64,000 bases of DNA from an uncultured Gemmatimonadales bacterium (lineage in GTDB: Bacteria; Gemmatimonadota; Gemmatimonadetes; Gemmatimonadales; GWC2-71-9): the NCBI GenBank assembly GCA_963723565.1, contig CAVRRH010000007.1, positions 92,329-156,328 of the forward strand, in the 5' to 3' direction. A program made the translations under genes and the position numbers. Position 1 is the first letter of the stretch; every line of letters starts with the position of its first letter. The notes beneath the pieces are model-generated. The model saw only the letters and a program-made list of their open reading frames with translations. It searched no databases and was not told the DNA's origin. Below are positions 20,355-64,000 of this stretch, piece after piece.

Positions 20355-23300
20355 TCCTGCAGTGCCCGCACATCGCCGGTCCGGCTCCGGAGCGCGATGA
20401 TAGCGTCGCAGGCCGCCGAGGCCGCCGACAGTGTCGTGGTGTACGGAACCCGATGCTGCAGTGCCGCCTGGCGGATCGCGTAATCGTCCTGCTGGGTCAG
20501 CTTTCCGAGGGGGGTGTTGATCAGCAGCTGGATTTGCCCCGAGACCAGCAGATCGATGGCGTTGGGACGACCCTCGTGCACCTTGAGTACTCGCTCGGTC
20601 GGAATGCCGCGCGCCCTGAGGTACCGGGCGGTGCCTTCGGTAGCCAGCATCCGGAAACCGAGCGCGTGAAACCGCCGCGCAATCGGAACCAGATTGGCCT
20701 TGTCGTGGTCGTTCACGGTGACGAACACCGAGCCTTCGAGCGGCAGGGCTCCATCAGCCGAGATCTGCGCCTTTGCGAAGGCCATTCCGAACGAGTCGGC
20801 GATTCCCATGACCTCGCCGGTCGAGCGCATTTCCGGCCCAAGGATGAGATCGACACCCTGCAGCTTGCTGAAGGGAAACACCGCCTCCTTGACCGCGACA
20901 TAGGGCTGGAGCACGTCGTCATGCAAGCCGAGATCCTCGAGAGTCTTGCCGACCATTACCGCGGCCGCCAGGCTGGCCAGCGGTACTCCGGTAGTCTTGG
21001 AGACGAACGGCACCGTCCGGGACGCGCGGGGATTGACCTCGAGCACGTAGACCACCCCGTTCTTGATGGCGTACTGCACGTTGAGTAGGCCTACCACCCC
21101 GAGGCGCTCGGCGAAGGCCCGGGTGTGTCGCCGCATCTCCTCCACCTGGTCTTCGGTGATCAGATACGGAGGCAGGACACAGGCCGAGTCGCCGGAGTGG
21201 ATGCCGGCATCTTCGATATGCTGCATCACCCCGCCGATCACGCACCGGGTGCCCATCGGCAATGGCGTCGACGTCCGCCTCGAAGGCGTCCTCCAGAAAA
21301 CTGTCGATGAGTACGGGATGTTCCGGCGACACTCTGGCCGCACGCTCGAAGTAGTTGCGCAGCGAGCTGTCGTCGTAGACGATCTCCATGGCTCGGCCCC
21401 CCAGTACGTATGAGGGACGAACCAGCACCGGGTACCCGACGCGGGCGGCCACGGCCACCGCCTCCTCGACCGACTGGGCGACCCCGCTGGCAGGCTGCGC
21501 CACACCGAGCTCCCGGGTGATCGCCTCGAACTTGCCGCGGTCTTCCGCCAGATCGATCGCCTCGGAAGAGGTGCCCAGGATGCGCACTCCCTCGCGCTCG
21601 AGGGCCCGGGCCAGGCGCAACGGTGTCTGACCGCCGAGCTGCACCACCACGCCGATCGGCTGTTCCACCGCGACTACCTCGAGCACGTCCTCCAGGGTGA
21701 GGGGCTCGAAATAGAGGGCGTCGGAGATATCGAAATCGGTGGATACGGTCTCCGGATTGGAGTTTACCATCACGGTGCGGTAACCCAGCTCCCGAAAAGC
21801 CATGGCGGCCCGTACACAGCAGTAGTCGAACTCGACCCCTTGGCCGATCCGGTTGGGACCGCTTCCCAGGATCAGCACGGTCTGCTCGCCGCTCGGCCGA
21901 GCCTCGTTCTCCTCGTCGTAGGAGGAGTAGAGGTACGGCGTAGAGGAGGGAAACTCGCCGGCGCAGGTGTCCACAGTCTTATAGGCCGGGCGAATCCCGA
22001 GCCGGTGGCGCTCGGCTCGAATGCTCCCCTCGGTGGTGCCGCGGAGATCGGCCAGCTGGCGGTCGGAGAAGCCGAGCCGTTTCATCCTGAGAAGCTGGTC
22101 CTTGGCTTCATCGGGCGAGGCACCCCTCCCCCCAGCACTGCCCCGCTGCCCCGCTGCCCCGCTGCCCTGCCATTCCTTCTCGGCCTCCAAGAGCTCCTCG
22201 AGCTGATACAGGAACCAGGGATCGATTCTGGTACGGTCGGCTATGGCCTCTACGGAGATGCCGAGCTGGAGCGCGTGCTTGATCTGGAAAATCCGCTCCG
22301 GTGTCGGGGTCCTGACCGCCGCGAGGACTGCTTCCCGGCTGGTGTCCTGAAGCCTGTCGTCACCGGGAGTGGCGCCAGTCACCCACCCCGCCCGATCCAC
22401 CTCCAGCCCTCGAAGACCCTTCTGGAAGGCCTCCTTGAAGGTGCGTCCGATGGCCATCACCTCGCCGACCGACTTCATCTGGGTGGTCAGCGTCGGATCG
22501 GCCGCCGGAAATTTCTCGAATGCGAAACGAGGAATCTTCACCACCACGTAGTCGAGCACCGGCTCGAACGAAGCGGGCGTGGTCTTGGTGATGTCGTTGG
22601 GGAGCTCGTCCAGACGGTAACCCACCGCCACTTTGGTACCGATGCGGGCGATGGGGAAGCCGGTGGCCTTGGACGCGAGGGCCGACGAACGGGAGACTCG
22701 CGGGTTCATCTCGATGACCAGCTGTTCGCCGGTGGTCGGGCTTACCGCGAACTGGATGTTGCAGCCGCCGGCGGTGACCCCGATCTCCCGGATGATGCGG
22801 ATGGCGGCATCCCGCATGACCTGGTACTCGCGGTCCGTCAGTGTCATGGCCGGAGCCACGGTAATCGAATCGCCGGTGTGCACGCCCATGGGGTCGAGAT
22901 TCTCGATCGAGCAGACGATCACCACGTTGTCGGCGCCGTCCCGCATGACTTCGAGCTCGAACTCCTTCCAGCCGATAATGCTCTGCTCGACCAGCACCGA
23001 TCCCACCGGCGAAAGGTCGAGCCCCCGCCGGACGAGGGTCTCGAACTCCTCCCGATTGTAAGCGATGCCGCCGCCCGAGCCCCCCAGGGTGAAGGACGGG
23101 CGCAGGATAGCAGGATATCCGGTGGACTCGACCGCCTCGAGCGCCTCTTCCAGGCTCTTGGCTGTGCGGCCTTCCGGAGTGGCGAGTCCGATGCGCCGCA
23201 TGGCCTGGGCGAACTCCTCCCGATCCTCCGCCAGACGGATGGCTCGCTCGTTGGCGCCGATCAGCTCCACCCCGAATCGCGCCAGTGTTCCGTCGCGCTG

Positions 23301-23606
23301 GAGCGCCATGGCCACGTTGAGCGCGGTCTGACCGCCCATGGTGGGCAGTAGCGCCTGTGGTCGCTCACGCTCGATCACCTTGGCTACCCACTCGGGCGTG
23401 ACCGGCTCGATGTAGGTTCGGTCGGCCAGCTCGGGATCGGTCATGATCGTGGCCGGATTCGAGTTGACCAGAACCACCCGGTAACCCTCCTCCTTCAGCG
23501 CCTTCACAGCCTGGGTTCCGGAGTAGTCGAATTCGGCGCCCTGCCCGATCACGATCGGTCCGGAGCCGATGAGCAGAATGGTCGACAGATCGGTACGCTT
23601 AGGCAT
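20309..23606 (-). CDS. carB: Carbamoyl-phosphate synthase large subunit; one frame break at the C run 21251..21253
   Basis: [33 protein letters not shown], two ATP-grasp halves and an MGS-like C-terminus. DAIADG / [22 protein letters not shown] rejoin if one base of GGG is skipped. Confidence 0.95.
22138..22171. repeat. Tandem octamer CTGCCCCG, 3 perfect copies plus 1 degenerate, inside the carB inter-domain linker
   Basis: Read directly: ctgccccg ctgccccg ctgccccg ctgccctgcc. It encodes [12 protein letters not shown]. The minus strand is GGGN5-type G-run rich. Confidence 0.85.
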
Positions 23607-24544
23607 CCACCATTTCCCGAAGGGTCTGCTCGAGAGTAAAACGCGGCGACCAGCTGGTCGCTCGTCGAAGTTTGCTGGCGTCGCCGACAAGATACTGAAT
23701 GTCGCCCGACCTCATCAGCGAAGGATCGAGTACCGGCCGCACCTTGGCGCCGACCAGATTTGCCAGCCGGCTGAACAGCTCCCTGAGGGTCACGCCCTCT
23801 CCGCGGGCGATGTTGTACGCCTCCCCAGGCGAGCCCTGCGTGAGCAGCGCGATGTAGGCGGCTGCGACATCGCGGACATCGAGCAGGTCGCGCACCGGAT
23901 CGAGACTGCCGGTGCGCACCTCGGCTGCGCCGGCGGCCTGGGCGGCGCGGAGCCGTTGGAGAAAGCCCGGCACCACATAGACTGGCAACTGCCCGGGACC
24001 GGTATGGGGAAACGCACGCGCGATCACAACCCGGAGTCCTGTGCGACGCCACGCCTCGAGCGCCGCAACTTCCGCCCCCACCTTGCTGGCCGCATACGGA
24101 GACTGGGGCAACAGTGGGTCGGTCTCGACTCGAGGCGCGGTCGGGCCGTCGCCGTAGACCTCGGCGCTGGAGACCACCAGCACCAGCGGATCCACTCCGG
24201 TGTGGGCCCGGAGTGCGACGGCTGCATCGACCAGCCGGGCGGTTCCAGCCGCATTGACGACCCAGGCCCGCCCCGGGTCCTGGCGTGCCTCGCTGCCGGA
24301 AGCCACCGCCGCGAGGTGGATCATTGCCTCGAATGGACGACTGAGCGCCGCGGAGACTGATGCAGCGTCGGTGACCTCGAGCGGAACGGCCGTCACCGCC
24401 TCCCGTGTCCGCTGCCGCAGCCAGCGCTCTGGCGGTTCTCCACCCGGCCGGCAGCCGGCCGACACCTCGTGACCCGACTCCACCAGCCGCTCCACCAGGT
24501 GCCGGCCGACAAACCCGTCGGCGCCGGTCACTAAGTACTCTCAT
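23599..24544 (-). CDS. GDP-4-dehydro-6-deoxy-D-mannose reductase-like SDR (Rmd/Fcl family); one frame break after codon 4
   Basis: 310 aa ORF with [10 protein letters not shown] Rossmann motif and SPYAASK. Skipping the T at 24532 gives [16 protein letters not shown] from the ATG at 24544. It lies directly downstream of gmd. Confidence 0.7.
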
Positions 24545-24557
24545 GAGGGCAGGGCCC

Positions 24558-25547
<990 letters not shown>

Positions 25548-25806: not shown

Positions 25807-25812
25807 ACGTAG

Positions 25813-25832
25813 GCCCGCAACGCGTTGCGGGC
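25813..25832. repeat. Perfect 20-nt palindrome GCCCGCAACGCGTTGCGGGC (copy 1)
   Basis: Read directly. An identical copy lies at 25895..25914. Confidence 0.9.
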
Positions 25833-25846
25833 GTACGCTGAAAAAA

Positions 25847-25872
25847 GGGGACCCGAAGGTCCCCATTGTTTT
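25847..25872. terminator. Bidirectional rho-independent terminator between convergent rpmB and rplQ
   Basis: The sequence aaaaaaGGGGACCcgaaGGTCCCCattgtttt has a 7-bp GC stem with a U-tract on the plus strand and a T6 run on the minus strand. Confidence 0.75.
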
Positions 25873-25894
25873 ACCTGCCTGCGAACCCCTGTGG

Positions 25895-25914
25895 GCCCGC
25901 AACGCGTTGCGGGC
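25895..25914. repeat. Perfect 20-nt palindrome GCCCGCAACGCGTTGCGGGC (copy 2), abutting the rplQ stop
   Basis: Read directly. Confidence 0.9.
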
Positions 25915-26271
25915 CTACTCGGCAAGAAGCTCGATCCGCGCGACATCGGCACCATCGCCCACCCGGTGCCCCATCTTGAGAATGCGGGTGTATCCACCCG
26001 GACGGGCCGCGAAACGAGGACCAATCTCGGAGAACAGCCGACCGAGGATCTCACGATCCTTGATCCGGCGTCCTACCAGCCGGCGGGAGTGCAGATCGCC
26101 GCGGCGAGCCATGGTGATGAGCTTCTCGGCGAACGGCCGCAGCTCTTTCGCCTTGGCCTCGGTCGTGATGACCCGGCCGTGGGCGAAGAGGCTCGTAGCC
26201 ATGTTGTTCAGCATCGCCCGCTTATGACTCGACGTACGGGAGAGCTGGCGACCCTTGGCCCGGTGCCGCAT
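25915..26271 (-). CDS. rplQ: 50S ribosomal protein L17
   Basis: MRHRAKGRQLSRTSSHKRAMLNNMATSLF..., 118 aa. Confidence 0.95.
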   Translation of the reverse strand: MRHRAKGRQLSRTSSHKRAMLNNMATSLFAHGRVITTEAKAKELRPFAEKLITMARRGDLHSRRLVGRRIKDREILGRLFSEIGPRFAARPGGYTRILKMGHRVGDGADVARIELLAE

Positions 26272-34207: not shown

Positions 34208-34291
34208 GCCGAAGTGGTGGAACTGGTAGACGCGCTGCGTTCAGGGCGCAGTGGGCGCAAGCCCGTGCGGGTTCGAGTCCCGCCTTCGGCA
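34208..34291 (+). tRNA. tRNA-Leu (anticodon CAG), type II with long variable arm; CCA not encoded
   Basis: Hand-folded: acceptor GCCGAAG/CTTCGGC, D arm GTG..CGC, anticodon stem CTGCG/CGCAG, loop TTCAGGG, variable arm TGGGCGCAAGCCCGT, T arm GCGGG-TTCGAGT-CCCGC, discriminator A. Confidence 0.92.
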
Positions 34292-34405
34292 TGACGGAGG
34301 GCGGAACGCGAGCTCCGAACACTGAGACGACCCTGCGGTGTCTGACGAGATCGGAGGGTCATACATCAGGCCTACCGCCCTTCCGCCGTACCGCCTCTAC
34401 CGCCC
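34292..34405. repeat. Tandem-unit inverted-repeat element I: four octamers (N)TACCGCC/CTTCCGCC at 34372..34404 facing GGAGGGCGG at 34296..34304
   Basis: Read directly: ctaccgcc cttccgcc gtaccgcc tctaccgcc. It fills the gap between the tRNA-Leu 3' end and the moeZ stop. Confidence 0.6.
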
Positions 34406-35567
34406 TCAATACCGTGGCAACCCCGGCTCCACCCGCTCGGCCCACGCGTCGATGCCGCCGGCCAGACTGCGGACCTTTCCGAACCCCGCTCCCTTGAGGA
34501 TCTCCAGCGCCTTCATCGACCGCGCGCCATGGTGGCAGTGGGTGACGATCTCGGCGTGCCCGTCGAGCTCCGAGAGACGCTCGGGCAGCTGACCCAGCGG
34601 GATCAGCCGGGCTCCCTCTATGTGCGACGATGTCCCATTCGTGAGGCTCGCGGACATCGATGAGGACAAGGTCCCCGCTCTTTTCGCTCATTTCCCGCCG
34701 CAGCTCCTCGGCAGTGATCTCAGGGCCGGCGTATGCCGGCTCCGCGCCGATGCCGCAAAAGGCTTCGTAGTCGATCAGCTCATGGATCGATGGGTTGGTC
34801 CCGCACATGGGACACGCCGGGTCCTTGCGGAGTTCCAGCTCCCGGAAGCGAAGCTTCAGGGCGTCGAACAGCAGCAGCCGTCCCAGCAGCGAGCTTCCTG
34901 CACCGATGATCCACTTGATGGTTTCCAGCGCCTGAATGCTGCCGATGATCCCGGGCAGCACACCGAGCACTCCGCCTTCGGCGCAACTGGGAACCAGGCC
35001 CGGAGGCGGGGGCTCGGAGTACAGGCAGCGATAGCATGGGCCCTTCCGGCGTAGAAGAGCGAGGCCTGGCCTTCGAAGCGGAAGATGCTGCCGTAGACAT
35101 TGGGTTTGCCCAGCAGCACGCAGGCGTCGTTTACCAGATATCGGGTGGGAAAGTTGTCGGTCCCATCCACGACGATGTCGTATTCCCGCGAGGATCTCCA
35201 GGGCGTTCTGGGACGTAAGCCGGGTCTCGTGCCGCTCGATCCGGACGTTGGGGTTAAGATCGGTCAGGCGCTCCTCGGCGGAGTCCAGCTTGGACCGGCC
35301 CAGCGTGGAGGTGCCGTGCACGATCTGCCGCTGAAGATTGGTCAGGTCGACCACATCGAAGTCCACGATGCCGATCGTACCCACCCCGGCGGCGGCGAGA
35401 TAGAGGGACAGGGGAGAACCGAGCCCGCCGGCGCCGACCGTCAGCACCCGTGCTGCCTTGAGCTTCCGCTGTCCGGAGACGCCCACCTCGGGCAGGAGGA
35501 GGTGCCTGGAGTACCGCAGCATCTCGGCATGGGAGAGCGGTGCTTTCGCTTCGGCCGTGGCCGGCGA
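34406..35567 (-). CDS. moeZ: E1-like adenylyltransferase/sulfurtransferase MoeZ (ThiF/MoeB domain plus C-terminal rhodanese); 3 frame breaks; no separate start, fused in frame to the cysO-like domain
   Basis: [87 protein letters not shown] (ORF 34856..35170), [22 protein letters not shown]. The rhodanese part THCHHGARS is in ORF 34406..34669. Confidence 0.85.
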
Positions 35568-37758: not shown

Positions 37759-37771
37759 TGTGTGTGGAGCG

Positions 37772-37871
37772 CCATTGGCTATGGGCTATGGGCCATGGGC
37801 TCTTACGGTGAAGTGTTGGCTTCCGGCCCGGGAACTCATCGTGCGAAGGGTAGCCAGCGTAGCCCATAGCC
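37772..37871. repeat. Tandem-unit inverted-repeat element F: heptamers C(T/C)ATGGG x3-4 facing GTAGCC/CCCATAGCC
   Basis: ccattgg ctatggg ctatggg ccatggg c ... gggtagccagcgtagcccatagcc. There is 12-nt complementarity (GGCTATGGGCTA). It lies between the NTase stop and the Rrf2 promoter. Confidence 0.65.
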
Positions 37872-37875
37872 TCCC

Positions 37876-38724
37876 TCACGACTTATCCGCCGCCGTCCAT
37901 CTGGCCACCTCTTCCGCGCTCATGGAGCCGAAGGGACGAATCCGGGCGTCCCGGTACGACCCGCCCAGTACGTCGCCCAGATACTGAGACCAGGAGAGAA
38001 GGGTACCGTAGCAGACCGGATCGGGGGCGTCCGGCTCGGCTAGCTCGGTCTCCAGCCGCTGGAGCAGCTCCCGCATGATCCATGTCGGAACCTTCGACCG
38101 CTCCGATGGAAAGATGAAGCCGAACAGGACGAGGTGGGCCAGGAGCACTCGCCAATGAGGCCCGAACCGCGCCAGGAGCCGTTTCCAGTCCAACCGTTCG
38201 CCGTGGGCAAGGATCAGATGTACCACGTCGGCGCCGTCGAACCGCTCCCGCTCCATGACGAATGCCTTCGACCAGATGGTTTCCTCCGGTGGTGCGATCT
38301 TTACACGAACCCCGAGGACAGTGCCCGGGGTCGCGTGCTCGAACCACCAATCGTCTACCATCGCGATGCCATTTCCGGAGTTGAAGATGACGTCGATGAA
38401 CCCTTCGGGCGAGCGAATCTTGGCCAGCCAGTGGGAGAAGACCAGCTCGGTCTCGTAGCCGGCTGCTGCGCAGGCTTCCAGCAGACGCTGGACGTCACGC
38501 GGACGGGCGAAGAGGTCCAGATCCTTGGTGGACTTGTCGATGCCAGCCTGATGGATGAACGCGAAGGCTCCGCCGACCAGGAACGGGACGCCGGCGCGGT
38601 TCAAGACCTCCATTGCCTCCCGATAGAACAGCCGGGAGGGAGTCTCGAATAATCGACTGCGTCGGCGACAGAGCCATGCCGGCCTCCCCGAGGAGTATGG
38701 TTCATGATATTGATCTTTGAGCAA
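37876..38724 (-). CDS. Uncharacterised nucleotidyltransferase-fold protein
   Basis: 282 aa ORF with minimal NTase motif VGGAFAFIHQAGIDKSTKDLDLF (G[GS]...DxD). Function unknown and start uncertain. Confidence 0.55.
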   Translation of the reverse strand: MLKDQYHEPYSSGRPAWLCRRRSRLFETPSRLFYREAMEVLNRAGVPFLVGGAFAFIHQAGIDKSTKDLDLFARPRDVQRLLEACAAAGYETELVFSHWLAKIRSPEGFIDVIFNSGNGIAMVDDWWFEHATPGTVLGVRVKIAPPEETIWSKAFVMERERFDGADVVHLILAHGERLDWKRLLARFGPHWRVLLAHLVLFGFIFPSERSKVPTWIMRELLQRLETELAEPDAPDPVCYGTLLSWSQYLGDVLGGSYRDARIRPFGSMSAEEVARWTAADKS

Positions 38725-39753: not shown

Positions 39754-41001
39754 CCGATCTTGGGAGCCAGCGCGGTGACCAGGGCCGGACTCCGCTCCAG
39801 CCAATAGGCGCACTGGGCCTCATCGGCTTCGATGCCGTCCACGCAGCGCTCGGCCAGGACTGCGCTGGCGTTACCCACGATGATGAGCATAAAGACGAGG
39901 TTGTGGGCCATGACCGGCATCATGACATTAAGCTCCAGCTGGCCGGCTTCAGTGGTCAGGGCAACCGTGGTGTCCAGGCCCAGTGCCTGATAGCACACCT
40001 GGTTGACCATTTCCGCAATCGATGGGTTGACCTTTCCTGGCATGATGCTGGAGCCGGGCTGAACCGCGGGGAGCAGGATCTCCGCCAGTCCGGTCCGCGG
40101 CCCCGAGGCAAGCAGTCGGATATCGTTGGCGATCTTGTTCAGGTCCAGCACGTAAGCCCGCACCGCACCGCTGATGGTGGCGAAGTCGCCCATCGACTGC
40201 ATCAGCTGCACCAGGTCCCGCCCTACCCTGAGCTGCAGGCCGCTGATCTGCTGGAGTTGACCCACCATCAACTCGGGGTACCCCGGTTCCGCGTTGATGC
40301 CCGTCCCCACTGCCGTGCCGCCGATGTTCATCTCCCTCAGCCAATCGGCGGCCTCGGCAATCTTTTTTCCATGGCGCTCGACGGTGTGACCGTAGGCGGT
40401 GAACTCCTGGCCCAGCCGGATCGGCGTGGCGTCCTGAAGATGGGTGCGTCCCGATTTCACGATCGCGTCGAATTGCACCCCCTTGGCCAGCAACGAGGCC
40501 GCCAATCGGTCGAGCGCGGCGAGCGTCTGAGGCAATGTAGCCAGCGTGGCCAGCCGCATCGCCGTGGGAATCACGTCGTTGGTACTCTGCGCCATGTTGA
40601 CGTGATCGTTGGGGTGCACCGGCCGGTAGCGTGCCTCGGGCGGAACCGAGGATCTCGTTCGCCCGGTTCGCGAGCACCTCATTACAGTTCATGTTATGGC
40701 TGGTACCCGCACCCGAATGATAGACGTCCACGATGAACTGGTCCCGGTGCTGGCCGGTAAGAATCTCATCGGCCGCCTGCACGATGGCGTCGGCCAGGCG
40801 AGGCTCGAGTCGGCCGGTCTGCTTGTGCACCAGAGCCGCGGAGCGCTTGATCCACACGACGGCATCGACGAATGCTGGAAGTGGGCGAAGTCCCGAGATC
40901 GGGAAGTTCTCGGCTGCGCGTAGGGTCTGGATCCCGTATAGCGCGGACGCGGGAACGGCCTTCTCGCCCAGCGGGTCGCGTTCGATACGCGTGTCAGTCA
41001 T
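39567..41001 (-). CDS. aspA: Aspartate ammonia-lyase; one frame break near 40632
   Basis: IERDPLGEKAVPASALYGIQTLRAAENFPISG, DQFIVDVYHSGAGTSHNMNCNEVLAN, HPNDHVNMAQSTND, GSSIMPGKVNP. Skipping the T at 40632 gives ILGSARGRYRPVHPNDHV, which aligns with E. coli AspA GHQKGEYQYLNPNDHV (from memory). Confidence 0.85.
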
Positions 41002-41036
41002 GGCAGCGCCGCTGGTTTAGTATGAGCAAAAGCATT

Positions 41037-41151
41037 AGCCACGGATTACACGGATGAGAACGGATCCAATCGTGATGGAGCATGCTGCTCGATCTACCCC
41101 ACAGCTTTGTTGTGTTGTTTGATCCGTGTGCATCTGTGTTCATCCGTGGCT
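41037..41151. repeat. Tandem-unit inverted-repeat element H: CACGGAT(NN) x3 facing ATCCGTG-type units x3, 54-nt spacer
   Basis: The left arm is agccacggattacacggatgagaacggatc and the right arm is gatccgtgtgcatctgtgttcatccgtggct. About 24 of 30 positions are complementary. It lies in the aspA/cupin divergent intergenic region. Confidence 0.75.
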
Positions 41152-41183
41152 TTCAGTTCCTGGCCATTACCATAGGGACTCGA

Positions 41184-43491: not shown

Positions 43492-43690
43492 TCCCCCGGT
43501 GGTCTCACCGAAGAACTCGGAGATGTCGAGGATGCTGAGGTTGGCCGCCGGACGGAGACGAGTGGGCAGCTCCGAACGGGATATGTCGAGCGCTCCGGCC
43601 TGGGGGACGCTCAGAGGCTGGAGATCGAGAATGGCAGGCGCGGAATCAGTCAGAGCAGTCCCCGAGCGGGTAGAACGTTCCGCAGTTGCC

Positions 43691-43837
43691 GCAGCGGTAC
43701 AGCGGGACAGCGGGGACGGCGGGTCAAGCGGGACGGCGGGTCAACTGGTCAGCATGCCCGCCGGGGATTCAGTTGTGCCGGGAAGACCACGTTCCCGCAT
43801 GGCCTGCCCCGCTGTCCCGCTGTCCCGCTGTCCCGCC
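43691..43837. repeat. Tandem-unit inverted-repeat element B: CGGG(A/G/T)(C)NNG units x5 facing CTG(C/T)CCCG x4, about 50-nt spacer
   Basis: The left arm is cagcggtacagcgggacagcggggacggcgggtcaagcgggacggcgggtcaactggtcagc. The right arm is ctgccccgctgtcccgctgtcccgctgtcccgcc and ends at the MBL stop codon. Confidence 0.8.
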
Positions 43838-44486
43838 CTACCCAAGCCGGTACGCCCCGGTCAGGAAAGGATTGGTGAGCCGCTCGATGCCGATGGTCGT
43901 GTCCGGACCATGCCCGCTGTGAACGACCGTCGAGTCGGGCAACGAGAGCAGTTGGGACTGGATGCTTGCCATGAGGGTAGCCGCGTCGCCACCGGGCAGG
44001 TCGGTCCGGCCTACCGACCCGTTGAACAGCACGTCGCCGCCGAAGACCATACCCTCACCCACGAAAGCCGACGCTGCCAGGCGAATGCCCGGGGGTGAAC
44101 CGCACCGTGAACTCGAAGCTCCCTACCTTGAGAACCTGACCGGGCTGTAGCTCCCGGTCCGGAGCCGGAGGCCTCTCCAACTGCATGCCGACCCAGCCGC
44201 CATACTGAGGCAGGGCGTCGTAGATGGGACGGTCGAGCGGATGAAGGTGAATCGGCACCCCGGTGGCGGCGTGCACCGCCCCCACACCGATGATGTGATC
44301 GATATGTGCGTGGGTGAGCCAGATGGCTCGCAGCGACCAGGCGCGGCTGTCCAGCTCGGCGAGAAACATCGCCGGCTCCTCGCCCGGATCGATGATTACC
44401 GCCTCCCGGGTGCGGCGATCGGCGACCAGGTAACAGTTCTCCGCAAACTGACCGTTGGGCAGCGATACGACTTCCAGGTCAGACAC
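43838..44486 (-). CDS. MBL-fold hydrolase (GloB/hydroxyacylglutathione hydrolase-like); one frame break at the A run 44064..44066
   Basis: WLTHAHIDHIIG, TPGHSPGSVGF / VGEGMVFGGDVLFNGSVGRTDLPGG, HSGHG. Confidence 0.82.
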
Positions 44487-45447: not shown

Positions 45448-45520
45448 ATCTTCCCCAAGTGAGCGTCATGCAACTCTCGCAGTCACAAATATAGAACGTC
45501 CGGGTGTTCCCGCACGTTCC

Positions 45521-45663
45521 GGGCTATCGGCTATTGGCTAGTTGTTATCCTGAGAGCCTGCCCCGGAGTGCGAGAGTATCTCAGCCCCGATTGGCTTGAG
45601 ATCCTTCGCTTCGCTCAGGATGACAGTCCCTCCAGTAGCCGATTGCCCACAGTCAATAGCCAC
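45521..45663. repeat. Tandem-unit inverted-repeat element G: GCTAT(C/T)G units facing CAATAGC/GTAGCCG units, around an inner hairpin ATCCTGAG...CTCAGGAT
   Basis: The sequence reads gggctatcggctattggctagttg ... ttatcctgag(56 nt)ctcaggatgacag ... cagtagccgattgcccacagtcaatagccac. It lies between the stop of gene 45664..46425 and the trxB upstream region. Confidence 0.7.
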
Positions 45664-46425
45664 CTACCCTAAATGCAGCAGACTCGCCGCCCCGTGACAG
45701 CTCGACACCGTGCCGACCAGCACGTCCACCGGTGACCGCGCCCGGCCCGCACTCTCTACCACTGCATCGCCCGCTAGAACGGCACTCACATCGAACATCC
45801 CGACACCAAACACCCTGTGCTCACAGACGAAGAGCACGGGACCGGCAGTTGGGTGGGCGTCGCTTAACCTGCGGGCCAGGCCCTCCATCGCATCCGCCAT
45901 CTCCCAGGTGCGGGGAGCCCGGATGACCGGGCATATGGCGGGCTCGATGCAGTGGGTGGGGCAGGTCCAGTCCGCAAAGGAGATGTAGCGCGTGCCATCC
46001 GGGGCACTCGTGTCATAGGGCGTGCCCGGCCCCATTGGAACAGGTCGCGTTTCTACGAGACGGCCCGGCCACCGATCACGGGCACGGCGGACCAGCCACT
46101 CGTACATGAGGTGCGGCATGAGAGGAGATGGGACGATGGCGTCGGGAGGGGCACCCGAAGGAGATGGCGAGGCGCCGCCGAGGTAGGCGTCGAAGAAATC
46201 ACCCCATTCCCGGGTCACCAGTTGGCGGGTGTCGTCTTCTCCCAGCTCGCGAGCAACCTGACAGGCCGGGTTGCGGTCCACGATCAGCAGCCTGCGGTAG
46301 GCCGCCCTGCCGCGGGCCCGAGCGCGCTCGAGCTGGCCGGCGTAGAAGCTGCCGTAGCAACCTCCGCCGACGATCACGACATCGCGGAAGCGGATGCTAT
46401 CGGATGAGTCGTCCACCGTCGACAA
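45664..46425 (-). CDS. Uncharacterised Rossmann-fold (GGGxYG) protein with a Cys cluster
   Basis: 253 aa ORF: VVIVGGGCYGSFYAGQL, and later WTCPTHCIEPAICPV. No family recognised. Confidence 0.5.
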   Translation of the reverse strand: MSTVDDSSDSIRFRDVVIVGGGCYGSFYAGQLERARARGRAAYRRLLIVDRNPACQVARELGEDDTRQLVTREWGDFFDAYLGGASPSPSGAPPDAIVPSPLMPHLMYEWLVRRARDRWPGRLVETRPVPMGPGTPYDTSAPDGTRYISFADWTCPTHCIEPAICPVIRAPRTWEMADAMEGLARRLSDAHPTAGPVLFVCEHRVFGVGMFDVSAVLAGDAVVESAGRARSPVDVLVGTVSSCHGAASLLHLG

Positions 46426-49443: not shown

Positions 49444-50913
49444 TCAGGTACCAGCTTCAGTGAACTCCTGGAGGCCCGCCTTCACGTCGGCCATGAATCG
49501 GTCGGCGTCGGCGCCGTCCACGATCCGGTGATCGAAGGCGAGCGAAAGCATTCCCTTGGTGCGAATCGCGATCATGTCGGTGTCGTCGACGGTGATGACG
49601 GCCGGCTGTTTCTCGATGCTCCCGACGCAGAGGATCGCGGCCTGGGGCTGGTTGATGATGGGCGTGCCGATCACCGATCCGAACCCGCCCGGGTTGGTGA
49701 TCGTGAAGGTCCCCTTCTGCACCTCATCCGGACTCAGCTTCTTGGTCCGGGCCCGCTCGCCGAGGTCGTTGATGGCCCGAGCTATCCCCAGCAGCGAGAG
49801 CTCGTCGGCGTGCTTGATCACCGGAACGATGAGCCCCCAGTCGAGCGCAACGGCGATGCCGATGTTGATGTCGCGCCGAAAGAGCGTGCTCTCCCCCGAC
49901 ACCGCGGCGTTGAGCACCGGGTGCTTCCGGAGGTTGTCCGCCACGACTTTCGTGATGAACGCCAGATAGGTGAGGTTCACGCCCCGGTCGGCAAACTCCT
50001 TCTTGTTCCTGGCCCGGACCTGCGCCACGCGGGTGTAGTCGATCTCGAAGATGGTATTGACGTGCGGCGAGACCCGGCGCGACATGACCATGTGGTCGGC
50101 GGTCAGCTTCCTGATCCGCGACCAGGGCTCGACCCGATCGCCGGGCCAGGGGTCGACCGTCGCTGCCGGCGCCAGCGGGACAGCGGGACCGCGGGACGGC
50201 GGGACAGCAACAGCGCTTGGGACTGACCCACTGACCCGCTGACCCGCTGGCCCGCTGACCGCCTTCCCCGCTTCCCCGCCCTCTATGTAGCTCAAGATGT
50301 CGTTCTTGGTGACGCGGCCCAGGAGCCCGGTGCCCGGAATGGCGCTGATGTCGACCTTGTGCTCCGCCGCCATCTTCCGGACCAGCGGGGTCGACTTTCG
50401 CTGGAGCCGCTCCTCGATCGACTCGGGCGCCCCATTCCCACCGGTGGCATCGCTCACAGCCCGGGTCTCAGGCGCGGCGGAGGCAGCAGCAGCGGGCACT
50501 GATCGCGAGGGAGCGGTCGGCTCGCTGGGGCGGGAAGCCCCCCTGGGCGGCACCGACGGCGCCGACGCCAGCGGCGCTGGAGGTGCTCCCGCAGGGGTGG
50601 CCGGTTTCTGGGGAGCCGGGGCGGCGGCCGACGGCGCAGCAGGAGCCTTTGGCTTCTCGGCGGCGGCACTCGCGTCGGTCTCGATCCGGGCGACGACGGT
50701 CTGCACCGCCACCGTCTCGCCCTCCTGCACCAGGATTTCCGCCAGCACCCCGGCAGTCGGGGCCGGAATCTCCGCGTCCACCTTGTCGGTCGAGATCTCG
50801 AAGATCGGCTCGTCCCGCTTGATGGGGTCGCCCACCTTCTTCATCCAGCGGGAGAGCGTGCCTTCCGCGATCGACTCTCCCATCTGGGGCATTATTACGT
50901 CAATCTTTGCCAT
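49444..50913 (-). CDS. Dihydrolipoamide acyltransferase (E2) of a 2-oxoacid dehydrogenase complex
   Basis: Lipoyl domain ...EISTDKVDAEIPAP. E3-binding domain STPLVRKMAAEHKVDISAIPGTG. Catalytic DHRIVDGA. 489 aa. Confidence 0.93.
   Translation of the reverse strand: MAKIDVIMPQMGESIAEGTLSRWMKKVGDPIKRDEPIFEISTDKVDAEIPAPTAGVLAEILVQEGETVAVQTVVARIETDASAAAEKPKAPAAPSAAAPAPQKPATPAGAPPAPLASAPSVPPRGASRPSEPTAPSRSVPAAAASAAPETRAVSDATGGNGAPESIEERLQRKSTPLVRKMAAEHKVDISAIPGTGLLGRVTKNDILSYIEGGEAGKAVSGPAGQRVSGSVPSAVAVPPSRGPAVPLAPAATVDPWPGDRVEPWSRIRKLTADHMVMSRRVSPHVNTIFEIDYTRVAQVRARNKKEFADRGVNLTYLAFITKVVADNLRKHPVLNAAVSGESTLFRRDINIGIAVALDWGLIVPVIKHADELSLLGIARAINDLGERARTKKLSPDEVQKGTFTITNPGGFGSVIGTPIINQPQAAILCVGSIEKQPAVITVDDTDMIAIRTKGMLSLAFDHRIVDGADADRFMADVKAGLQEFTEAGT
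50174..50280. repeat. Tandem-unit inverted-repeat element C inside the E2 linker: CGGGACNG x4, spacer CAACAGCGCTTGGGA, CTGACCCG-type x4, CTTCCCCG x2
   Basis: Read directly: cagcgggacagcgggaccgcgggacggcgggacagcaacagcgcttgggactgacccactgacccgctgacccgctggcccgctgaccgccttccccgcttccccgcc. It is in frame and encodes GEAGKAVSGPAGQRVSGSVPSAVAVPPSRGPAVPLA. Confidence 0.85.
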
Positions 50914-50922
50914 TCATCCCTC

Positions 50923-50998
50923 TCAGGAGTGCTGGTCAGGAGTCGGGAGTCTGGAGTCGACCCGCCCGACTCGCTGACTCCTGACTCCCGACTCAACT
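50923..50998. repeat. Tandem-unit inverted-repeat element E: heptamers C(A/G/T)GGAGT x4 facing (C)GACTC(N) x4, 9-nt loop, between E1-beta stop and E2 start
   Basis: The sequence is tcaggagtgctggtcaggagtcgggagtctggagtcgacccgcccgactcgctgactcctgactcccgactc. Confidence 0.85.
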
Positions 50999-53146: not shown

Positions 53147-54813
53147 GCCGGAGAGAGCTCAGTCGTGGGAAGAAAACGGGGTGGCCGCCGGTGCTTGGTC
53201 GCCTGCTCGAACGCAAACCCAATTCGGATGAGGGTCGGCTCACTCCAGGCGACGGCCGAAGAAGGAGAGATTGACCGGCAAGCCCGTACACGAATCCCAT
53301 CGGCACGCTGATGCTCGGGTAGCCGGCAACCGCCGCGGGGGTGGAGCTGCGACCCGGTGAAATGGTCGCCGTTCACCAGGTCGGTCGGCCAGGCCGGGTT
53401 GCCCGTCGGCGCCACGAGGGCATCCAGCCGGTGCTTTGCCATGACGGCGTCGATACCCAGCGCGCGGGAGAGCCGGCGGCAGCTGCTCCAGCGCCTTCTG
53501 TAGGCGGGCGAGGTCAGGGGTCCCTTCTCTTGCGCCTGCAGGAAGAGCTCCTGGCCAAAATAAGGCATCTCCCGGTCCCGCGTGCTGCTCGATTGAACTC
53601 GATAACATCGCCGAGCGTCTTGACCGCGTGCGCCGCTCCCAGGGCCGCCAGGTAGCGTTCAGATCGGCCTTGAGCTCGTAGAGCAGGACCTCCAGCTCGG
53701 CGTCGTCGTACTCGCCGGCGTGCGGAATGTTCGGCTGGGTCGACCAGCACGGCGCCTTCGTGCCGGAGCACGTCCGAGGGCGGCCTCCGCCGGCCGGTCG
53801 GTCGCGTCGCTGTAGCCGAAGAACTTCGCCCGGGCCACACCGATCCGTGCTCCGCGGAGGCCGGCCGGGTCGAGAAATTTGGTGTAATCCTGGTGCACGT
53901 GTCCCGCCGCCGGCCGCGGTCGCCGCGCCGCGAGGATCGGGACCGGCCATCGCCGCCAAGCAGAGCCGCGGCATCGGCGACGCGTCCGGCATAAGCGGGC
54001 CCGGCCGTGTCCTGAGTGTGAGAGATCGGGATGATCCCCGCCCGGCTCACCAGCCCAACCGTCGGCTTGAGTCCGACTACTCCATTGCCGGATGCCGGGC
54101 AGACGATCGAGCCATCGGTCTCGGTGCCCACGGCTACCGCGCCGAGATTGGCCGAGACCGCCACTGCCGATGCCCGAGCTGGAGCCCACAGGGGTTCCGG
54201 TCGAGAACAAACGGGATTCCGACACTGCCCCCCGCGGGCGCTCCATCCACTGGACGAGTGGGTGGACCGGATATTTGCCCACTCGCTCATGTTGGCCTTT
54301 GGCGAGCAGGACGGCGCCGGCACTTCGAAGGCGGGCGGCGACGCCCGAATCGCGACTGGGGAACCGAGCCCTCGAGCGCGAGCGAGCCGGCCGTGGTGGT
54401 CATCCGGTCGGCGGTGTCGATGTTGTCTTTGAGCAGAACGGGTATGCCGTGGAGCGGACCGCGCGGCCCCTGGGCCTTGCGCTCCCGGTCGAGGACGTCG
54501 GCCACGGACGAGCGCCTCGGGGTTGGTCTCAATGACGCTGTGGAGCCGGGGCCCTTCCCGGTCGAGATTCGTGATGCGGGCGAGGTACACTCGTCAACCG
54601 TTGATGTGCCGTGAGCCGGCCCGCCTGCATATCGGCCTGCAGTCCGGCGATGGTAGCCTCGTCCAACTCGACCGGCCCGACGTCCCAACCGGACGACCTG
54701 CCCAAGGCCGGTAGCATCCGCAGCGGGCCGGATTTGCTGACGGCGGCGACACTGACCAGCGCGGCGTAACTCAGGAACCCGCGCCGATCGATGCCGCCTC
54801 CTCGACCCATCAT
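53143..54813 (-). CDS. Amidase-signature family amidase with Tat-type signal; many frame breaks
   Basis: MMGRGGGIDRRGFLSYAALVSVAA. AS motif GVAVGTETDGSIVCPASGNGVVGLKPTVGLVSRAGIIPISHTQDTAGP. C-terminus ...IRIGFAFEQATKHRRPP. Confidence 0.8.
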
Positions 54814-54836
54814 TGTTGGGATCGCGTCTATGACCT

Positions 54837-57348
<2,512 letters not shown>

Positions 57349-57397
57349 CTCCTGGGCTTCACTGGCATGAGATTCTGTTGTCGTGAGAGAAGAGAAG

Positions 57398-57689
57398 TTA
57401 GTAGGCGCCGATCGGACGATGCGTCGGCTCTGCCATCGTATGCACCATGGTGAGAAAGCGCTTGGCCCGCTTGTCGGCTTCGCTTTCTCCGACCTGGTCG
57501 GTCTCGACCGTCACCAGGGTGTAGTGACCACCCTCGGCCTGAACCGTCACCGTAATTCGGCCGATCGGTGCCGGCGAACTGCCGGCGCCGGGGCTGCTCC
57601 TCCACCGGTGCCAGGGTCCCGCCGAAAAACCGTCCGGCCCCGACGAGCACTTCGTCGGGGGGAAGGTGGGTGCGGTGGAAGTATTTCAC
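57398..57689 (-). CDS. Hypothetical small protein (about 96 aa), one frame break; translationally coupled to ino1
   Basis: A GTG at 57689 lies 3 nt after the ino1 TAA, with GAGGA upstream. VKYFHRTHLPPDEVLVGAGRFFGGTLAPVEEQP... then ...IGRITVTVQAEGGHYTLVTVETDQVGESEADKRAKRFLTMVHTMAEPTHRPIGAY (own translation). Confidence 0.4.
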
Positions 57690-57691
57690 CC

Positions 57692-59021
57692 TTAATCCTC
57701 GACGTAGTACTCGAGATCGAGATGGGTGATCTGCGTCTCGCCCATCAGATACCGGAGCGTGTTCTTGAGCTTGGTCTGCTGAATGAAGAGGTCGTGCTCC
57801 GGGTAGAGGCCGGGTGCCGTTTGGGGGCTCTTGAAGTAGAAGGAGAGCCACTCCTGGATCCCGCTCAGACCGGCGCGCTGCGAGAGGTCGAAGAACAGAG
57901 CCAGGTCGAGCACCAGGGGAGCGGCGAGAATGGAGTCACGACAGAGGAAGTCCACCTTGATCTGCATCGGGTAACCGAGCCACCCGAAGATGTCGATGTT
58001 ATCCCAGCCTTCCTTGTTGTCGCCTCGGGGCGGATAGTAGTTGATCCGCACCTTGTGATACATCTTGCCGTAGAGCTCGGGATAGAGTTGGGGCTGAAGG
58101 ATGTACTCCAGCACCCCGAGCTTCGACTCCTCCTTGGTCTTGAAGCTCTCGGGATCGTCCAGCACCTCGCCATCACGGTTCCCCAGAATGTTGGTCGAGT
58201 ACCAGCCCGCCACCCCCAGCATTCGCGCCTTGAACATCGGCGCCAGGACGGTCTTGACCATGGTCTGGCCGGTCTTGAAATCCTTACCGCCGATTGCGAC
58301 GCCTTTGCTCTTGGCGAGCTGCTCCATGGCGGGGAAGTCGCAGGTGAGGTTCGGTGCGCCGTTGGCGAACGGTACACCTTCCATGATGGCGGCGTAGGCG
58401 TAGAGCATCGACGGCGCGATCGTCGGATCGTTCGCGTCCATCGCCTTTTCGAATGCTTCGAGGGTCCAGTGGCTGGGTCCGGGGCTGATGAAGATCTCGG
58501 TCGACGCGCACCAGACCATCACCAGGCGGTCGCACTTCTGTTTGGTCTTGAACTGCTTGATGTCCTTGCGGAGCGCCTCGGCTAGCTCGCGCTTGCCGCT
58601 GCCCGGCTTGACGTTCTTGCCTTCGAGCCGCTTGACGTAGCTCTGGTCGAACACCGCCGGCATCGGCTTGATGGCCTTGAGAAAAGCGGCGATGGGTTCG
58701 AGGTGTTCGTGGCGATCCAACACCCCCGCCCGCACGGCGGCGGTGTAGGCGTCATCAGGAATCGGGTCCCAGGCGCCGAATACCAGGTCCTCGAGGGAGG
58801 CCAGCGAGACGAAGTCGCGGATCAGGGGAGCGCGCCTCTCGGTACGCTTGCCCGAGCCGGATAGTACCCATCTGTGTGATCGATCCGATCGGCCGTGCCG
58901 CCCCGCGGCGGATGTTCTCCACGCCGGCGATGAACGTCGTAGCTACCGCACCCAGCCCCACACACAGCACCCCGAGCTTCCCCTGAGCCGGCGCGATCTG
59001 CCGGGCGTTCTTTTCCGCCAC
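57692..59021 (-). CDS. ino1: myo-Inositol-1-phosphate synthase; two frame breaks near the 5' end
   Basis: MAEKNARQIAPAQGKLGVLCVGLGAVATTFIAG, NGAPNL, GKDFKTGQT, GWYSTNILGNRDG, INYYPPRGDNKEGWDNIDI. Confidence 0.9.
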
Positions 59022-59023
59022 TT

Positions 59024-62853: not shown

Positions 62854-64000
62854 GCCGGGCCTGGGCCCCCCTCATGATGGTCGCCGTGGGCTGCGCACCC
62901 CGCATCGATTCCCGTATCCCCTCGGCTATGACCGTGCTGAAGACCAATTGGACCCCGGTGACGACGTTCCTCGATTCCGTGGTGTCGGCCGGGGCCGCTC
63001 CCGGCGCGGTGCTCGGCGTGAGCGTGGCAGGGCAGCGCTACGTCTACGCCAGCGGCCGGTTGACCCGGGACGAGCCGGAGCAAGCCGAGCCGACTACGGT
63101 CTACGATCTTGCATCGCTTACCAAGGTCGTCGGCCTCACCACCGCGGTGATGCTGGCCGTAGATGATGGCAGACTCGAGCTCGACGCGCCGGTCCAGCAG
63201 TACCTGTCCGCATTCGAAGGTGAGGGGAAGGAGCGGGTGACCATCCGGCTGCTTCTGGCACACGCAAGCGGCCTGCCCCCTTGGCGGCCTCTGTTCCGAG
63301 AGACGGAAACGCGGGAGGAGGCCTTCGCCCTGGCCGACACCACTGCTCTGAGCTCGCCGCCGGGAACGACGGACGTTTACTCCGATCTCGGCATGATCGT
63401 CCTGACTCAGGCGGTGGAAGCGGCGTACCACGAACGGCTCGACTCTCTGCTCGCCCGCCGGATTTTTCAGCCGCTCGGCATGACCTCAGTCGGGTTCCTG
63501 CCAACCGCCGAGCGTGCTCGGATCGCCCCAACGGAGCTCGACCCGTGGAGGGGCCGGGTGCTGAGAGGCGAGGTGCACGATGAGAACGCCGCGCGACTGG
63601 ACGGTGTGTCGGGGCACGCCGGGCTCTTTGGATCGGCGCCGGATCTGTTGACGTTTGCCGAGTGGCTGCTGGAAGGATGGAACGAGGGACGGATGGAACG
63701 AGGGACGGCAACAGCCCCTCTTCCCTCGTTCCCTCGTTCCCCCGTTCCTTCGTTCAGGACTTCACCCGCCGCCAGAATCTCATCCCCGGCTCCCATCGCG
63801 CATTGGGCTGGGACACGCCCTCTCCCGGCAGCAGCGCCGGGGACTTGCTTTCACCCCAGAGCATCGGCCACACCGGCTTCACCGGCACCTCTCTCTGGAT
63901 CGATCCCGAGCGTCGGCTCGCGATCGTCCTGCTCAGCAATCGAGTGAACCCCACCCGCGACAACTCCGCGTGGGCGGGGGTGCGCGCGAGAATCGCAGAT
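62850..64000 (+). CDS. Serine hydrolase, beta-lactamase/PBP4*-like family (SxxK); interrupted by repeat D with a frame change; runs off the window
   Basis: [11 protein letters not shown] (SxxK), YSDLG, HDENA. After the repeat, in another frame: [25 protein letters not shown]...[30 protein letters not shown]. Confidence 0.82.
63675..63754. repeat. Tandem-unit inverted-repeat element D inside the serine hydrolase CDS: 16-mer GGATGGAACGAGGGAC x2, spacer GGCAACAGCCCCTCTT, octamers CCCTCGTT-type x4
   Basis: Read directly: ggatggaacgagggacggatggaacgagggacggcaacagcccctcttccctcgttccctcgttcccccgttccttcgtt. AACGAGGG is the exact reverse complement of CCCTCGTT. Confidence 0.85.

Follow-up and report, generated by a model that had tools for sequence, protein, structure and literature searches.

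The 64,000-nucleotide (nt) stretch of the genome of an uncultured Gemmatimonadales bacterium analyzed here (contig CAVRRH010000007.1, positions 92,329 to 156,328; hereafter, the window) contains hairpins in which a few tandem copies of a short unit, typically of 7 or 8 nt, face tandem copies of its imperfect reverse complement. The original prediction held that these periodic hairpins belong to one family that is defined by layout rather than by sequence, which raises the question of how the layout arises and persists while the unit itself turns over. Four orthologous sites bear out this definition of the family: in the spacer between the E1 and E2 genes of a 2-oxoacid dehydrogenase, in the linker of the E2 protein, at the site that follows a metallo-beta-lactamase-fold (MBL) gene, and in a loop of a serine hydrolase, the hairpin stays, the unit changes, and both arms change together.

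Abundance of the periodic hairpins

The detector employed here requires an array of period 7-10 reported by Tandem Repeats Finder (TRF; at least 2.5 copies) that faces at least two tandem reverse-complement units (at most two mismatches) within 200 nt. In the window, 7 loci are positive, whereas 200 dinucleotide shuffles averaged 0.01 and never exceeded 1; one of the 7 (19172-19327) is a false positive that does not fold. The main sample consisted of the window and 80 related genomic loci (1.24 Mb altogether; L-numbers below denote related loci, of which 163 were fetched), the top relatives of the window E2 protein being Gemmatimonadales metagenome-assembled genomes with at most 89% identity. 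This sample contains 362 arrays, compared to 54 in shuffles, and in the comparison with dinucleotide shuffles that the original prediction had proposed, the observed density of paired loci is far above the control (103 versus 1.5 on average and no more than 4 in any of 12 shuffles). In 89 of the 103 paired loci, the 5' arm pairs with the 3' arm upon folding; the fold z-scores cited below compare single-strand folding with that of shuffled sequence. A second, independent sample of 80 Joint Genome Institute (JGI) metagenome contigs (0.47 Mb) contributed 40 further elements.

An assembly artefact, or chance in GC-rich sequence, can be practically dismissed as the source of these structures. The window does look like an error-prone assembly, with many frameshifted genes, and several metagenome contigs end inside the E2 hairpin. 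However, the architecture is found in more than 150 independent contigs, and its recurrence at identical sites in over 100 independent assemblies from various projects and assemblers excludes an artefact; furthermore, the shuffles yield almost none of the observed pairs, and 26 orthologous proteins, each predicted independently, have the in-gene copies in frame. The observation of periodic hairpins is confirmed as real.

By period, the TRF arrays divide into those of 7 (119), 8 (149), 9 (75) and 10 nt (19), so that octamers are about as frequent as heptamers, in a departure from a strict heptamer definition. The arms contain approximately 2-5 copies, typically about 4 units. Altogether, 61 unit families were recognized among 121 elements. 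The families represented in the window are GGAGTCR, GGCTATN, GCGGGNNN, AACGAGGG, ACGGATN, GGTGAGC and CCTACCGC; the original claim that the unit differs at every locus was overstated, given that GGCTATN occupies two window loci, GCGGGNNN three, and families recur across genomes.

Turnover of the unit at orthologous sites

In the window, the space from the E1 stop to the E2 start is filled by a 7-mer periodic hairpin on the minus strand (50923..50998; GGAGTCR facing GACTCCN, arrays 50935-50959 and 50968-50994) that begins 4-5 nt past the E1 stop and whose 3' arm is followed by the ribosome-binding site (RBS) and ATG; the segment 50920-51000 folds with -46 kcal/mol (z -4.6). Most of the approximately 29 orthologues inspected carry tandem 7- or 8-mers in this spacer, some facing their complement and others forming only one arm; the units bear no relation to one another, 9 unrelated 5'-unit families being represented among the 13 genomes in which both arms were typed. 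The units include GGAGTCR (window, L010, L019), TCTAGGG or TCGAGGG (L001, L009, L012, L014, L017, L018), GCGGGGCR (L002, L003, L006, L008, L015, L029), GGCTATK (L013, L016, L030), GAGCTAT (L032), GAGTCRC (L020, L036) and GGTCTTG (L023). The flanks around the changing arrays are conserved, namely the stop followed by (A/T)GTTG (TAG-AGTTG) on one side and GACCAGC-RBS-ATG on the other, and in a few genomes (L024, L035) the spacer is empty and only 20-25 nt long. The unit classes are patchily distributed on the E2 tree, and the nearest relatives of the window (L002, L001 and L003) carry three other alleles.

The two arms of the E1-E2 spacer hairpin co-vary: the distance between the 5' unit and the reverse complement of the 3' unit is 0.77 within the same genome and 3.46 between genomes (permutation p < 0.0002). 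Between the homologous alleles of L002 and L008, each arm is longer or shorter by a single unit, which reads as a signature of slippage.

In the window, the hairpin within the E2 (dihydrolipoamide acyltransferase) gene (50173..50280, minus strand; arrays 50173-50208 and 50223-50279) is in frame and falls within the flexible linker that joins the E3-binding domain to the catalytic one, approximately at amino acids (aa) 211-246, where it encodes GGEAGKAVSGPAGQRVSGSV...AVPPSRGPAVPLAP; the segment 50165-50285 folds with z -2.8. All orthologues with at least 74% identity contain a periodic 8-mer hairpin at this position, whereas in more distant ones the linker is plain Ala/Pro. The hairpins are built from the units GGGGCAGC, GGGGAAGC, GGGTAAGC or GGGTCAGC, with a complementary change in the opposite arm (own-genome distance 1.37, compared to 1.74 for other genomes; p = 0.007). 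For example, L021 has GGGGAAGC in every unit, whereas the approximately 90-95% identical L011, L014 and L020 have GGGGCAGC. In the window, an identical T.T mismatch is present in every unit of the E2 hairpin (GGGTCAGC versus GGGACAGC), so each arm can be homogenized separately. The metagenome contigs L125, L127, L137, L141, L145, L147, L149 and L153 begin or end within this hairpin (the matches start at E2 residues 184-252); periodic hairpins apparently break short-read assemblies.

The third site directly follows the stop of the MBL gene (43838), upstream of a gene for a GT4 glycosyltransferase. The window holds there an 8-mer periodic hairpin on the minus strand (43691..43837; CGGGACAG facing CTGTCCCG, arrays 43692-43744 and 43804-43836), which is a strong folder (-90.5 kcal/mol, z -5.2 for 43690-43838). 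The orthologous position, about +6.9 kb from the E2 start, is occupied in L007-L011, L015 and L079 by the GCGGGNNN variants GCGGGGCA, GCGGGGAA or GCGGGTAA.

The fourth site is located within a serine hydrolase gene (Beta-lactamase family) and is represented in the window by a hairpin on the plus strand (63671..63755; (GGATGGAACGAGGGAC)x2.4 facing (CCCTCGTT)x5, arrays 63671-63708 and 63716-63755; z -4.5 for 63665-63760). Among 26 orthologous proteins, the stretch from FAEWML to EFTRRQ ranges from about 0 to 50 residues, in frame in all cases and with two empty alleles, and reads as a translated periodic hairpin, e.g., EGWNEGRREGGNEGRGERGNEG...PSYPRTLLPSFPRS or EQADGRTGGRADGWTGGRAD...PTARPTLRPST. 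At the DNA level, L161 contains a GGCGGACG hairpin (-84 kcal/mol), L163 contains about 8 GGAACGAGG units with a decayed 3' arm, and L162 is empty and holds GGACGGGTGG. Given that filled alleles have GGCGGACG or GGATGGAACGAGGGAC arrays, GGACGGGTGG at the empty L162 site is a plausible seed of the array. In the window, the hydrolase frame differs before and after this 8-nt-unit element, and the Pfam match resumes in the other frame. This change is a local anomaly, all 26 orthologues being in frame. Gain or loss of a 7- or 8-nt unit shifts the frame, and in-gene arrays could act as on/off switches, or else the anomaly could be an assembly indel.

The E2 and hydrolase copies were originally noted to share the junction GGGAC(A/G)GCAACAGC. 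The string is indeed present in both, but it looks like a decayed unit (GGGACAGC turned into GCAACAGC) rather than a signature; similar strings occur in L006 and L079. Near-identical strains that might capture single slippage events were sought in JGI metagenomes, and none closer than approximately 87-93% protein identity was found.

Orientation, position and origin

The elements obey an orientation rule: the G-rich arm is 5' and the C-rich arm is 3', which for a palindrome is true of both strands. The G-rich arm comes first in 103 of 110 skewed elements, with the reverse in 7. Counted by element, there are 78 G-first, 4 C-first and 7 neutral cases in the first set and 31, 4 and 5, respectively, in the JGI set; counted by unit family, there are 49, 5 and 7 (p = 4e-10). 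Ordinary perfect hairpins (stem of at least 10 bp) in the same DNA show no G-first bias (11 G-first, 23 C-first, 23 neutral).

The fixed polarity of the G-rich arm would fit G-quadruplex (G4) or i-motif regulatory elements in which the facing arm is secondary, as argued for the arrays of Xanthomonas and Nostoc, and so would the approximately four units per arm, a number also preferred in those arrays, for which G4 formation was shown by circular dichroism (PMC4692102). Furthermore, the GCGGGGNN family satisfies the pattern G3+N1-7 x4, which the original prediction reported for the GC-rich versions of the element. However, this is a property of one family and not of the class: the canonical motif is present in only 24 of 86 elements (28%), families such as GCTATTA, GGCTATG, GTGAACG, GTCTAGG and AAAAGTG are unable to form a quadruplex, and the complementary facing arm would compete with G4 folding. 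We consider this explanation highly unlikely.

The gene context of the elements was derived from crude home-made codon-score gene calls, which replaced a flank-frame method that was too strict (49 of 89 elements undetermined), and the position figures are accordingly approximate. Among the 89 elements, 56 are between co-directional genes, 21 in genes, 7 between convergent genes, 2 between divergent genes and 3 at contig ends. The median distance from the upstream stop to the element is 3.5 nt (interquartile range -0.25 to 8.5), that from the end of the element to the next start codon is 31.5 nt, and the median element length is 91 nt. About half of the 7-mer families, by an informal count, contain TAG, TGA or TAA (GTCTAGG, GTGAACG, GTGAGCG, GCTATGA, GCTATTA, GAGGTAA, GTGTTGA), and as neither 7 nor 8 is divisible by 3, a stop falls in every frame once three such units are present. 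In some cases, the stop of the upstream gene is itself part of the first or second unit (19344-19346 in the window; the E1 stop in L001, L009, L014 and L017).

Intrinsic (Rho-independent) terminators were considered and rejected for lack of a T-tract: within 15 nt after the 3' arm, the longest T-run is at most 2 in 52 of 56 elements. In searches of Rfam 15 with gathering as well as E-value cutoffs, tRNA-Leu alone scored above the gathering threshold and no family was found for the hairpins; a sub-threshold MIR533 match on 43696-43826 (28.6 versus 80 bits) reflects a generic long hairpin. With no T-tract, no Rfam match and no shared sequence beyond the unit, the original view that ordinary terminators or repetitive extragenic palindrome (REP) elements do not account for the hairpins holds.

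If transcribed, the elements would fold as 25-30-bp stem-loops without a U-tract, and it is possible that they are selected RNA elements, that is, intercistronic stem-loops for the stability of the upstream mRNA, for RNase III-type processing, or for slowed termination and re-initiation, in which case periodic arms would be the easiest mutational route to restoring a long stem. Most of the orthologues inspected have an element in the E1-E2 spacer, among them the distant L023, L025, L028, L032 and L033, despite the full turnover of the unit; the elements begin a median of 3.5 nt past the stop and have the RBS just 3' of the hairpin; they are concentrated between co-directional genes (56 of 89), with only 2 between divergent ones; and stems of about 4 units are very stable. 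In E. coli, according to Liang, Rudd and Deutscher in 2015, a REP within ~15 nt of the stop reportedly lowers translation. For cyanobacterial short tandemly repeated repetitive (STRR) sequences, a role of the hairpins in transcript stability or translation coupling has been proposed (PMC2670836), and stem-loops at nif processing sites stabilize Anabaena transcripts (PMC4284476).

The mismatches in the stems point the other way. In the 56 intergenic co-directional elements, we counted, on the sense strand, 60 G.U, 57 A.C and 98 transversion mismatches along with 1446 Watson-Crick pairs. Functional RNA stems usually retain G.U and purge A.C. The equality of the two classes here shows no sign of filtering at the RNA level and indicates a DNA-level rather than an RNA-level constraint. 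Genic elements have 31 A.C and 10 G.U, a count dominated by orthologues of a single site and subject to confounding by coding constraint. In addition, arm-only and decayed copies are common, and it is not obvious what a 30-bp stem would do at the RNA level in the coding regions that harbor some of the copies. On balance, we regard RNA-level selection as the cause of the elements as doubtful, albeit a serious contender.

The elements might also be non-autonomous and mobile, of the MITE (miniature inverted-repeat transposable element) or REPIN type, moved by a transposase encoded elsewhere, with a unit family corresponding to an element family. Some units indeed recur within a genome (twice each in L050, L074, L078 and L049; two GGCTATN loci and three GCGGGNNN loci in the window), a given site can be filled in some genomes and empty in others, and copies are present in genes, as is the case with Rickettsia palindromic elements. 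Nevertheless, the loops of same-unit copies within one genome are unrelated (L050, 2815 versus 9454; L074, 2438 versus 5259), as many as 61 unit families occur among 121 elements, and the flanks and the stem base are conserved while the interior changes. The original prediction reported neither a transposase nor inverted repeats of a known insertion sequence nor target-site duplications, and the present analysis agrees: none of the ~47 window open reading frames (ORFs) scanned encodes a transposase, a reverse transcriptase or a REP-associated tyrosine transposase (RAYT), and comparison by eye of filled and empty alleles at a few E1-E2 and hydrolase sites revealed no target-site duplication and no terminal inverted repeats beyond the arrays. 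Mobility of this kind is therefore improbable. As for the loops in general, that of L012 consists of decayed units, and those of L073, L080 and L031 contain an inner non-periodic hairpin.

For the architecture, abundance, positions, unit turnover, arm co-variation, orientation rule and in-frame coding copies observed here, we favor, at about even confidence, the explanation that the elements are STRR-like periodic palindromes, non-coding and without a gene of their own, that are written and renewed at the DNA level wherever they are tolerated. The seed would be a short local G-rich sequence of 7 or 8 nt, amplified to a tandem array by replication slippage. The inverted copy would then be synthesized by fold-back or template switching, starting at the nascent 3' end that is G-rich, to give both strands the form 5'-(G-rich unit)n - loop - (C-rich unit)n-3'; such fold-back by a G-rich nascent strand would give the G-first polarity. 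The element would be renewed as units slip within each arm and are copied from one arm to the other, possibly also from locus to locus, such that the unit drifts or is replaced while the arms stay complementary. Upon decay, the middle would become loop, or one arm would be lost. The elements would persist only where 60-130 extra nt are tolerated, namely in the gap between stop and RBS in co-directional gene strings and, within proteins, in flexible linkers and surface loops, with in-frame translation; this would explain their position after stops and before the RBS as well as in the E2 linker and the hydrolase loop. Once in place between genes, they could serve as intercistronic 3'-end protectors, RNase III-type processing sites or obstacles to translation termination, by analogy with the proposals for REP and STRR hairpins.

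Several points weigh against this explanation. We infer the slippage and fold-back steps, the latter from the orientation rule. Close relatives differ at the E1-E2 spacer by an 8-mer versus an unrelated 7-mer (GGAGTCR in the window, GCGGGGCG in L002, TCTAGGG in L001), a switch that gradual slippage cannot accomplish, so that recombination or fresh seeding must join the model. The high occupancy of the E1-E2 spacer and the precise position after the stop fit functional selection equally well; together with the abrupt switches of the unit, this occupancy calls for recombination, re-seeding or selection beyond gradual drift. Loci of one genome share units more often than loci of different genomes (20.5% versus 10.2%; permutation p = 0.014), which hints at exchange between loci or a trans-acting factor, neither required by the model. 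For genome-specific 8-mer variants common to the E2 linker and the MBL site, a suggestive comparison that is confounded by phylogeny, L007, L010, L018 and the window agree, whereas L005, L015 and L017 disagree. Finally, the sample is centered on the ~20-kb neighborhood of one gene, and many of the elements are orthologues of a few sites.

A bolder idea, which we consider unlikely, is that the G-first polarity, which 49 of 54 skewed unit families display, is the footprint of polar DNA synthesis that starts from a 3' end where a fork has stalled or the DNA is broken, writes there a G-rich array of 7-8-nt units and then folds back to copy it. A dedicated polymerase, primase or reverse transcriptase might be involved, with its template or footprint setting the unit, and one machine might be behind the STRRs, the Xanthomonas arrays and the elements described here. 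Under this scenario, the sharing of units within genomes would reflect a genome-specific trans-acting determinant.

Other window loci and known repeat systems

The window (66% G+C) encodes mostly housekeeping genes, nearly all on the minus strand, including uvrB, relA/spoT, secA, rpoA, rpsD, pyrD, pyrF, smpB and carB, along with the E1-E2 pair, fumarase and an H+-pyrophosphatase (H+-PPase). Arrays at all nine loci of the original list were recovered by TRF. Six of these fold as long hairpins beyond the shuffles, namely the four described above and those at 41037-41151 and 45521-45663, whereas two, at 37772-37871 and 34292-34405, are weak, and the ninth, within carB, is an arm only, as originally described.

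The hairpin at 41037..41151 (minus strand; ACGGATNN(N) facing ATCCGTGNN(N), arrays ~41040-41066 and 41122-41148) sits just upstream of the fumarase start (41001) and folds with -50.8 kcal/mol (z -6.0 for 41030-41155). The element at 45521..45663 (minus strand) begins 3 nt past the stop at 45664 and is a composite, with the outer arms GGCTATC GGCTATT GGCTA and CAATAGCC (arrays 45522-45540 and ~45636-45662; z -3.7 for 45518-45665); its orthologue in L029 (15197-15393) has the units GGCTATT and CCCATAG. The loop of the composite contains a separate REP-like palindrome of the ATCCTGAGCGAAGCGAAGGATC type (45545-45630). Either this palindrome was inserted into a periodic hairpin or the periodic arms grew around a REP-like copy. 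The sequence-conserved REP-like palindrome to which this copy is related, with the core CCTGAGCRAVGCGAAGG, occurs in inverted pairs and was also found in L024 (5998-6067, with a 33-bp perfect stem), L049 (5558-5613), L066 (20790-20806) and L131 (7678-7732).

At 37777..37871 (minus strand), GGCTATG x3.6 faces CCCATAGCC in a short-arm hairpin (arrays 37777-37801 and 37858-37871) that begins 4 nt past the stop of a nucleotidyltransferase gene, upstream of a gene for an Rrf2 regulator; the fold is weak, with a 12-bp stem only (z -0.6 for 37765-37880). Another weak member is found at 34292..34406, with tRNA-Leu(CAG) on one side and, on the other, the 3' end of an opposite-strand JAB/ThiS/ThiF gene; here, the C-rich 8-mer CCTACCGC x4.4 (34371-34406) faces a single GAGGGCGG (z -1.8 for 34285-34410); the same CCTACCGC unit makes a clear hairpin in L029 (17077-17145).

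Copies inside carB, E2 and the serine hydrolase were found as originally predicted, those in carB and E2 being in frame. The carB copy (22138..22171, minus strand) consists of CGGGGCAG x3.8 on the sense strand, within the region for the oligomerization domain, and forms no hairpin on folding (z +0.4). A periodic hairpin that was absent from the original list is located at 19306..19357 (minus strand), with the 5' arm GGGGTAAGAGGTGAGCGGG, the loop CCCATCCCCA and the 3' arm CCCGCTAACCGCTCACCGCTGAC. It belongs to the 7-mer GGTGAGC family, which recurs in L037, L047, L048 and L076; the MurB stop TGA (19344-19346) lies within its second unit, and the next gene starts at 19290.

A structure of a different kind is the canonical bidirectional intrinsic terminator with T-tracts at 25840-25872 (AAAAAAGGGGACCCGAAGGTCCCCATTGTTTT). 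It is flanked by two copies of the 20-nt perfect palindrome GCCCGCAACGCGTTGCGGGC (25813-25832 and 25895-25914; region 25809-25918), a sequence with no occurrence in the 163 fetched loci.

Many of the housekeeping genes are split by frameshifts, which makes the window look like an assembly in which indel errors remain, perhaps because long reads were used, and exact unit counts in the window are accordingly unreliable. Frameshifts are located in the fumarase gene (40625-40644) and at ~44070 in the MBL gene, where the data fit the loss of a T from a T-run (GGCTTTCGTGGGTGA reads through as ...GFFVGEGMVF with one T added). The carB gene is divided into two ORFs (20309-23690), that for H+-PPase into three (54287-57851), and the UDP-glucose dehydrogenase gene is split as well (15211-17518); a SecA fragment is found at 9123-10502. 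In a single long ORF at 4486-7005, a RadC-like JAB domain (aa 22-108) is joined to RelA/SpoT, TGS and ACT domains, possibly not as a true fusion but through an indel that makes two genes read as one.

Cyanobacteria have been known to harbor heptamer arrays and their hairpins from about 1990 onward, and Xanthomonas more recently, with no accepted origin or function. STRRs comprise a few named families per genome (STRR1-3). A 1995 article by Jackman and Mulligan (Microbiology 141:2235) reportedly deals with 'highly variable but structured' nif intergenic regions, in which closely related strains would differ in sequence but keep the structure, as do the genomes compared here. Octamers, the G-first orientation, adjacency to stops and coding copies are not known from STRRs and set the present elements apart. 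The 7-bp tandem repeats of the STRR type form hairpins between hupS and hupL in several cyanobacterial species, with unknown function (PMC2670836).

The GGGAATC arrays of Xanthomonas and the GGGGA(C/T)T arrays of Nostoc consist of ~7-nt tandem units, typically in about 4 copies, and are over-represented between co-oriented ORFs, at most 50 bp from stop codons; 70-75 sites in Xanthomonas have two arrays that are always convergent, one per strand, and their stem-loop or cruciform potential was noted while the function was left as unknown (Rehm et al. 2015, PMC4692102). The convergent Xanthomonas pairs have the same G-first layout as the elements described here and resemble them also in the number of copies and in location near stops between co-oriented ORFs. 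In contrast, a single unit dominates in Xanthomonas and Nostoc, whereas we found at least 6 families in 64 kb and 61 in the data set; here, in the phylum Gemmatimonadota, octamers are as common as heptamers and most units are incapable of G4 formation; and in-frame in-gene copies and turnover at orthologous sites are absent from the Xanthomonas and Nostoc description. The dominance of heptamers in long simple-sequence repeats has been attributed to polymerase slippage, 7 nt being a polymerase-interacting length (Mrazek et al. 2007, as summarized in PMC4679880).

Like REP elements, bacterial interspersed mosaic elements (BIMEs) and REPINs of Proteobacteria, the periodic hairpins are small extragenic palindromes that follow stops inside operons. 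REPs affect mRNA stability and translation, and REPINs are inverted doublets that form hairpins. A REP is a conserved sequence that is repeated hundreds of times and mobilized by the RAYT transposase, whereas the elements described here have no conserved 20-40-nt sequence, internally periodic arms and unrelated loops. The tandem repeats of Borgs are reported to evolve fast, to originate independently at many loci and, when in genes, to create new disordered protein segments (Schoelmerich et al. 2023, PMC9879509); unlike the present elements, they are reportedly direct repeats only, without facing inverted arrays, and on archaeal extrachromosomal elements. A search of the accessible literature on repeats of Gemmatimonadota found no description of such elements. 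What is new compared to the known kind is the multitude of unit families per genome, the octamers, the mostly non-G4 units, the in-frame gene copies, and the documented turnover and arm co-variation.

In practical terms, these elements matter for genomics because short-read assemblies apparently break at them, slippage of 7- and 8-nt units shifts frames, and non-homologous insertions in conserved proteins confuse annotation and alignment. Hundreds of species-level Gemmatimonadales genomes share synteny, so that a single site can be traced through the turnover of its unit. The regularities described here lend themselves to testing, namely the co-variation of the arms, the lack of a mismatch bias on the RNA strand, the 5' position of the G-rich arm, the abutment on stop codons, and the in-frame hypervariable segments in the E2 linker and the hydrolase loop. 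If the elements are indeed the product of polar synthesis, an unrecognized mutational machine would be inserting palindromes into bacterial genomes and making new protein segments, and if the polarity reflects a dedicated mechanism, bacteria would have a new way of generating structured DNA and innovation in proteins.

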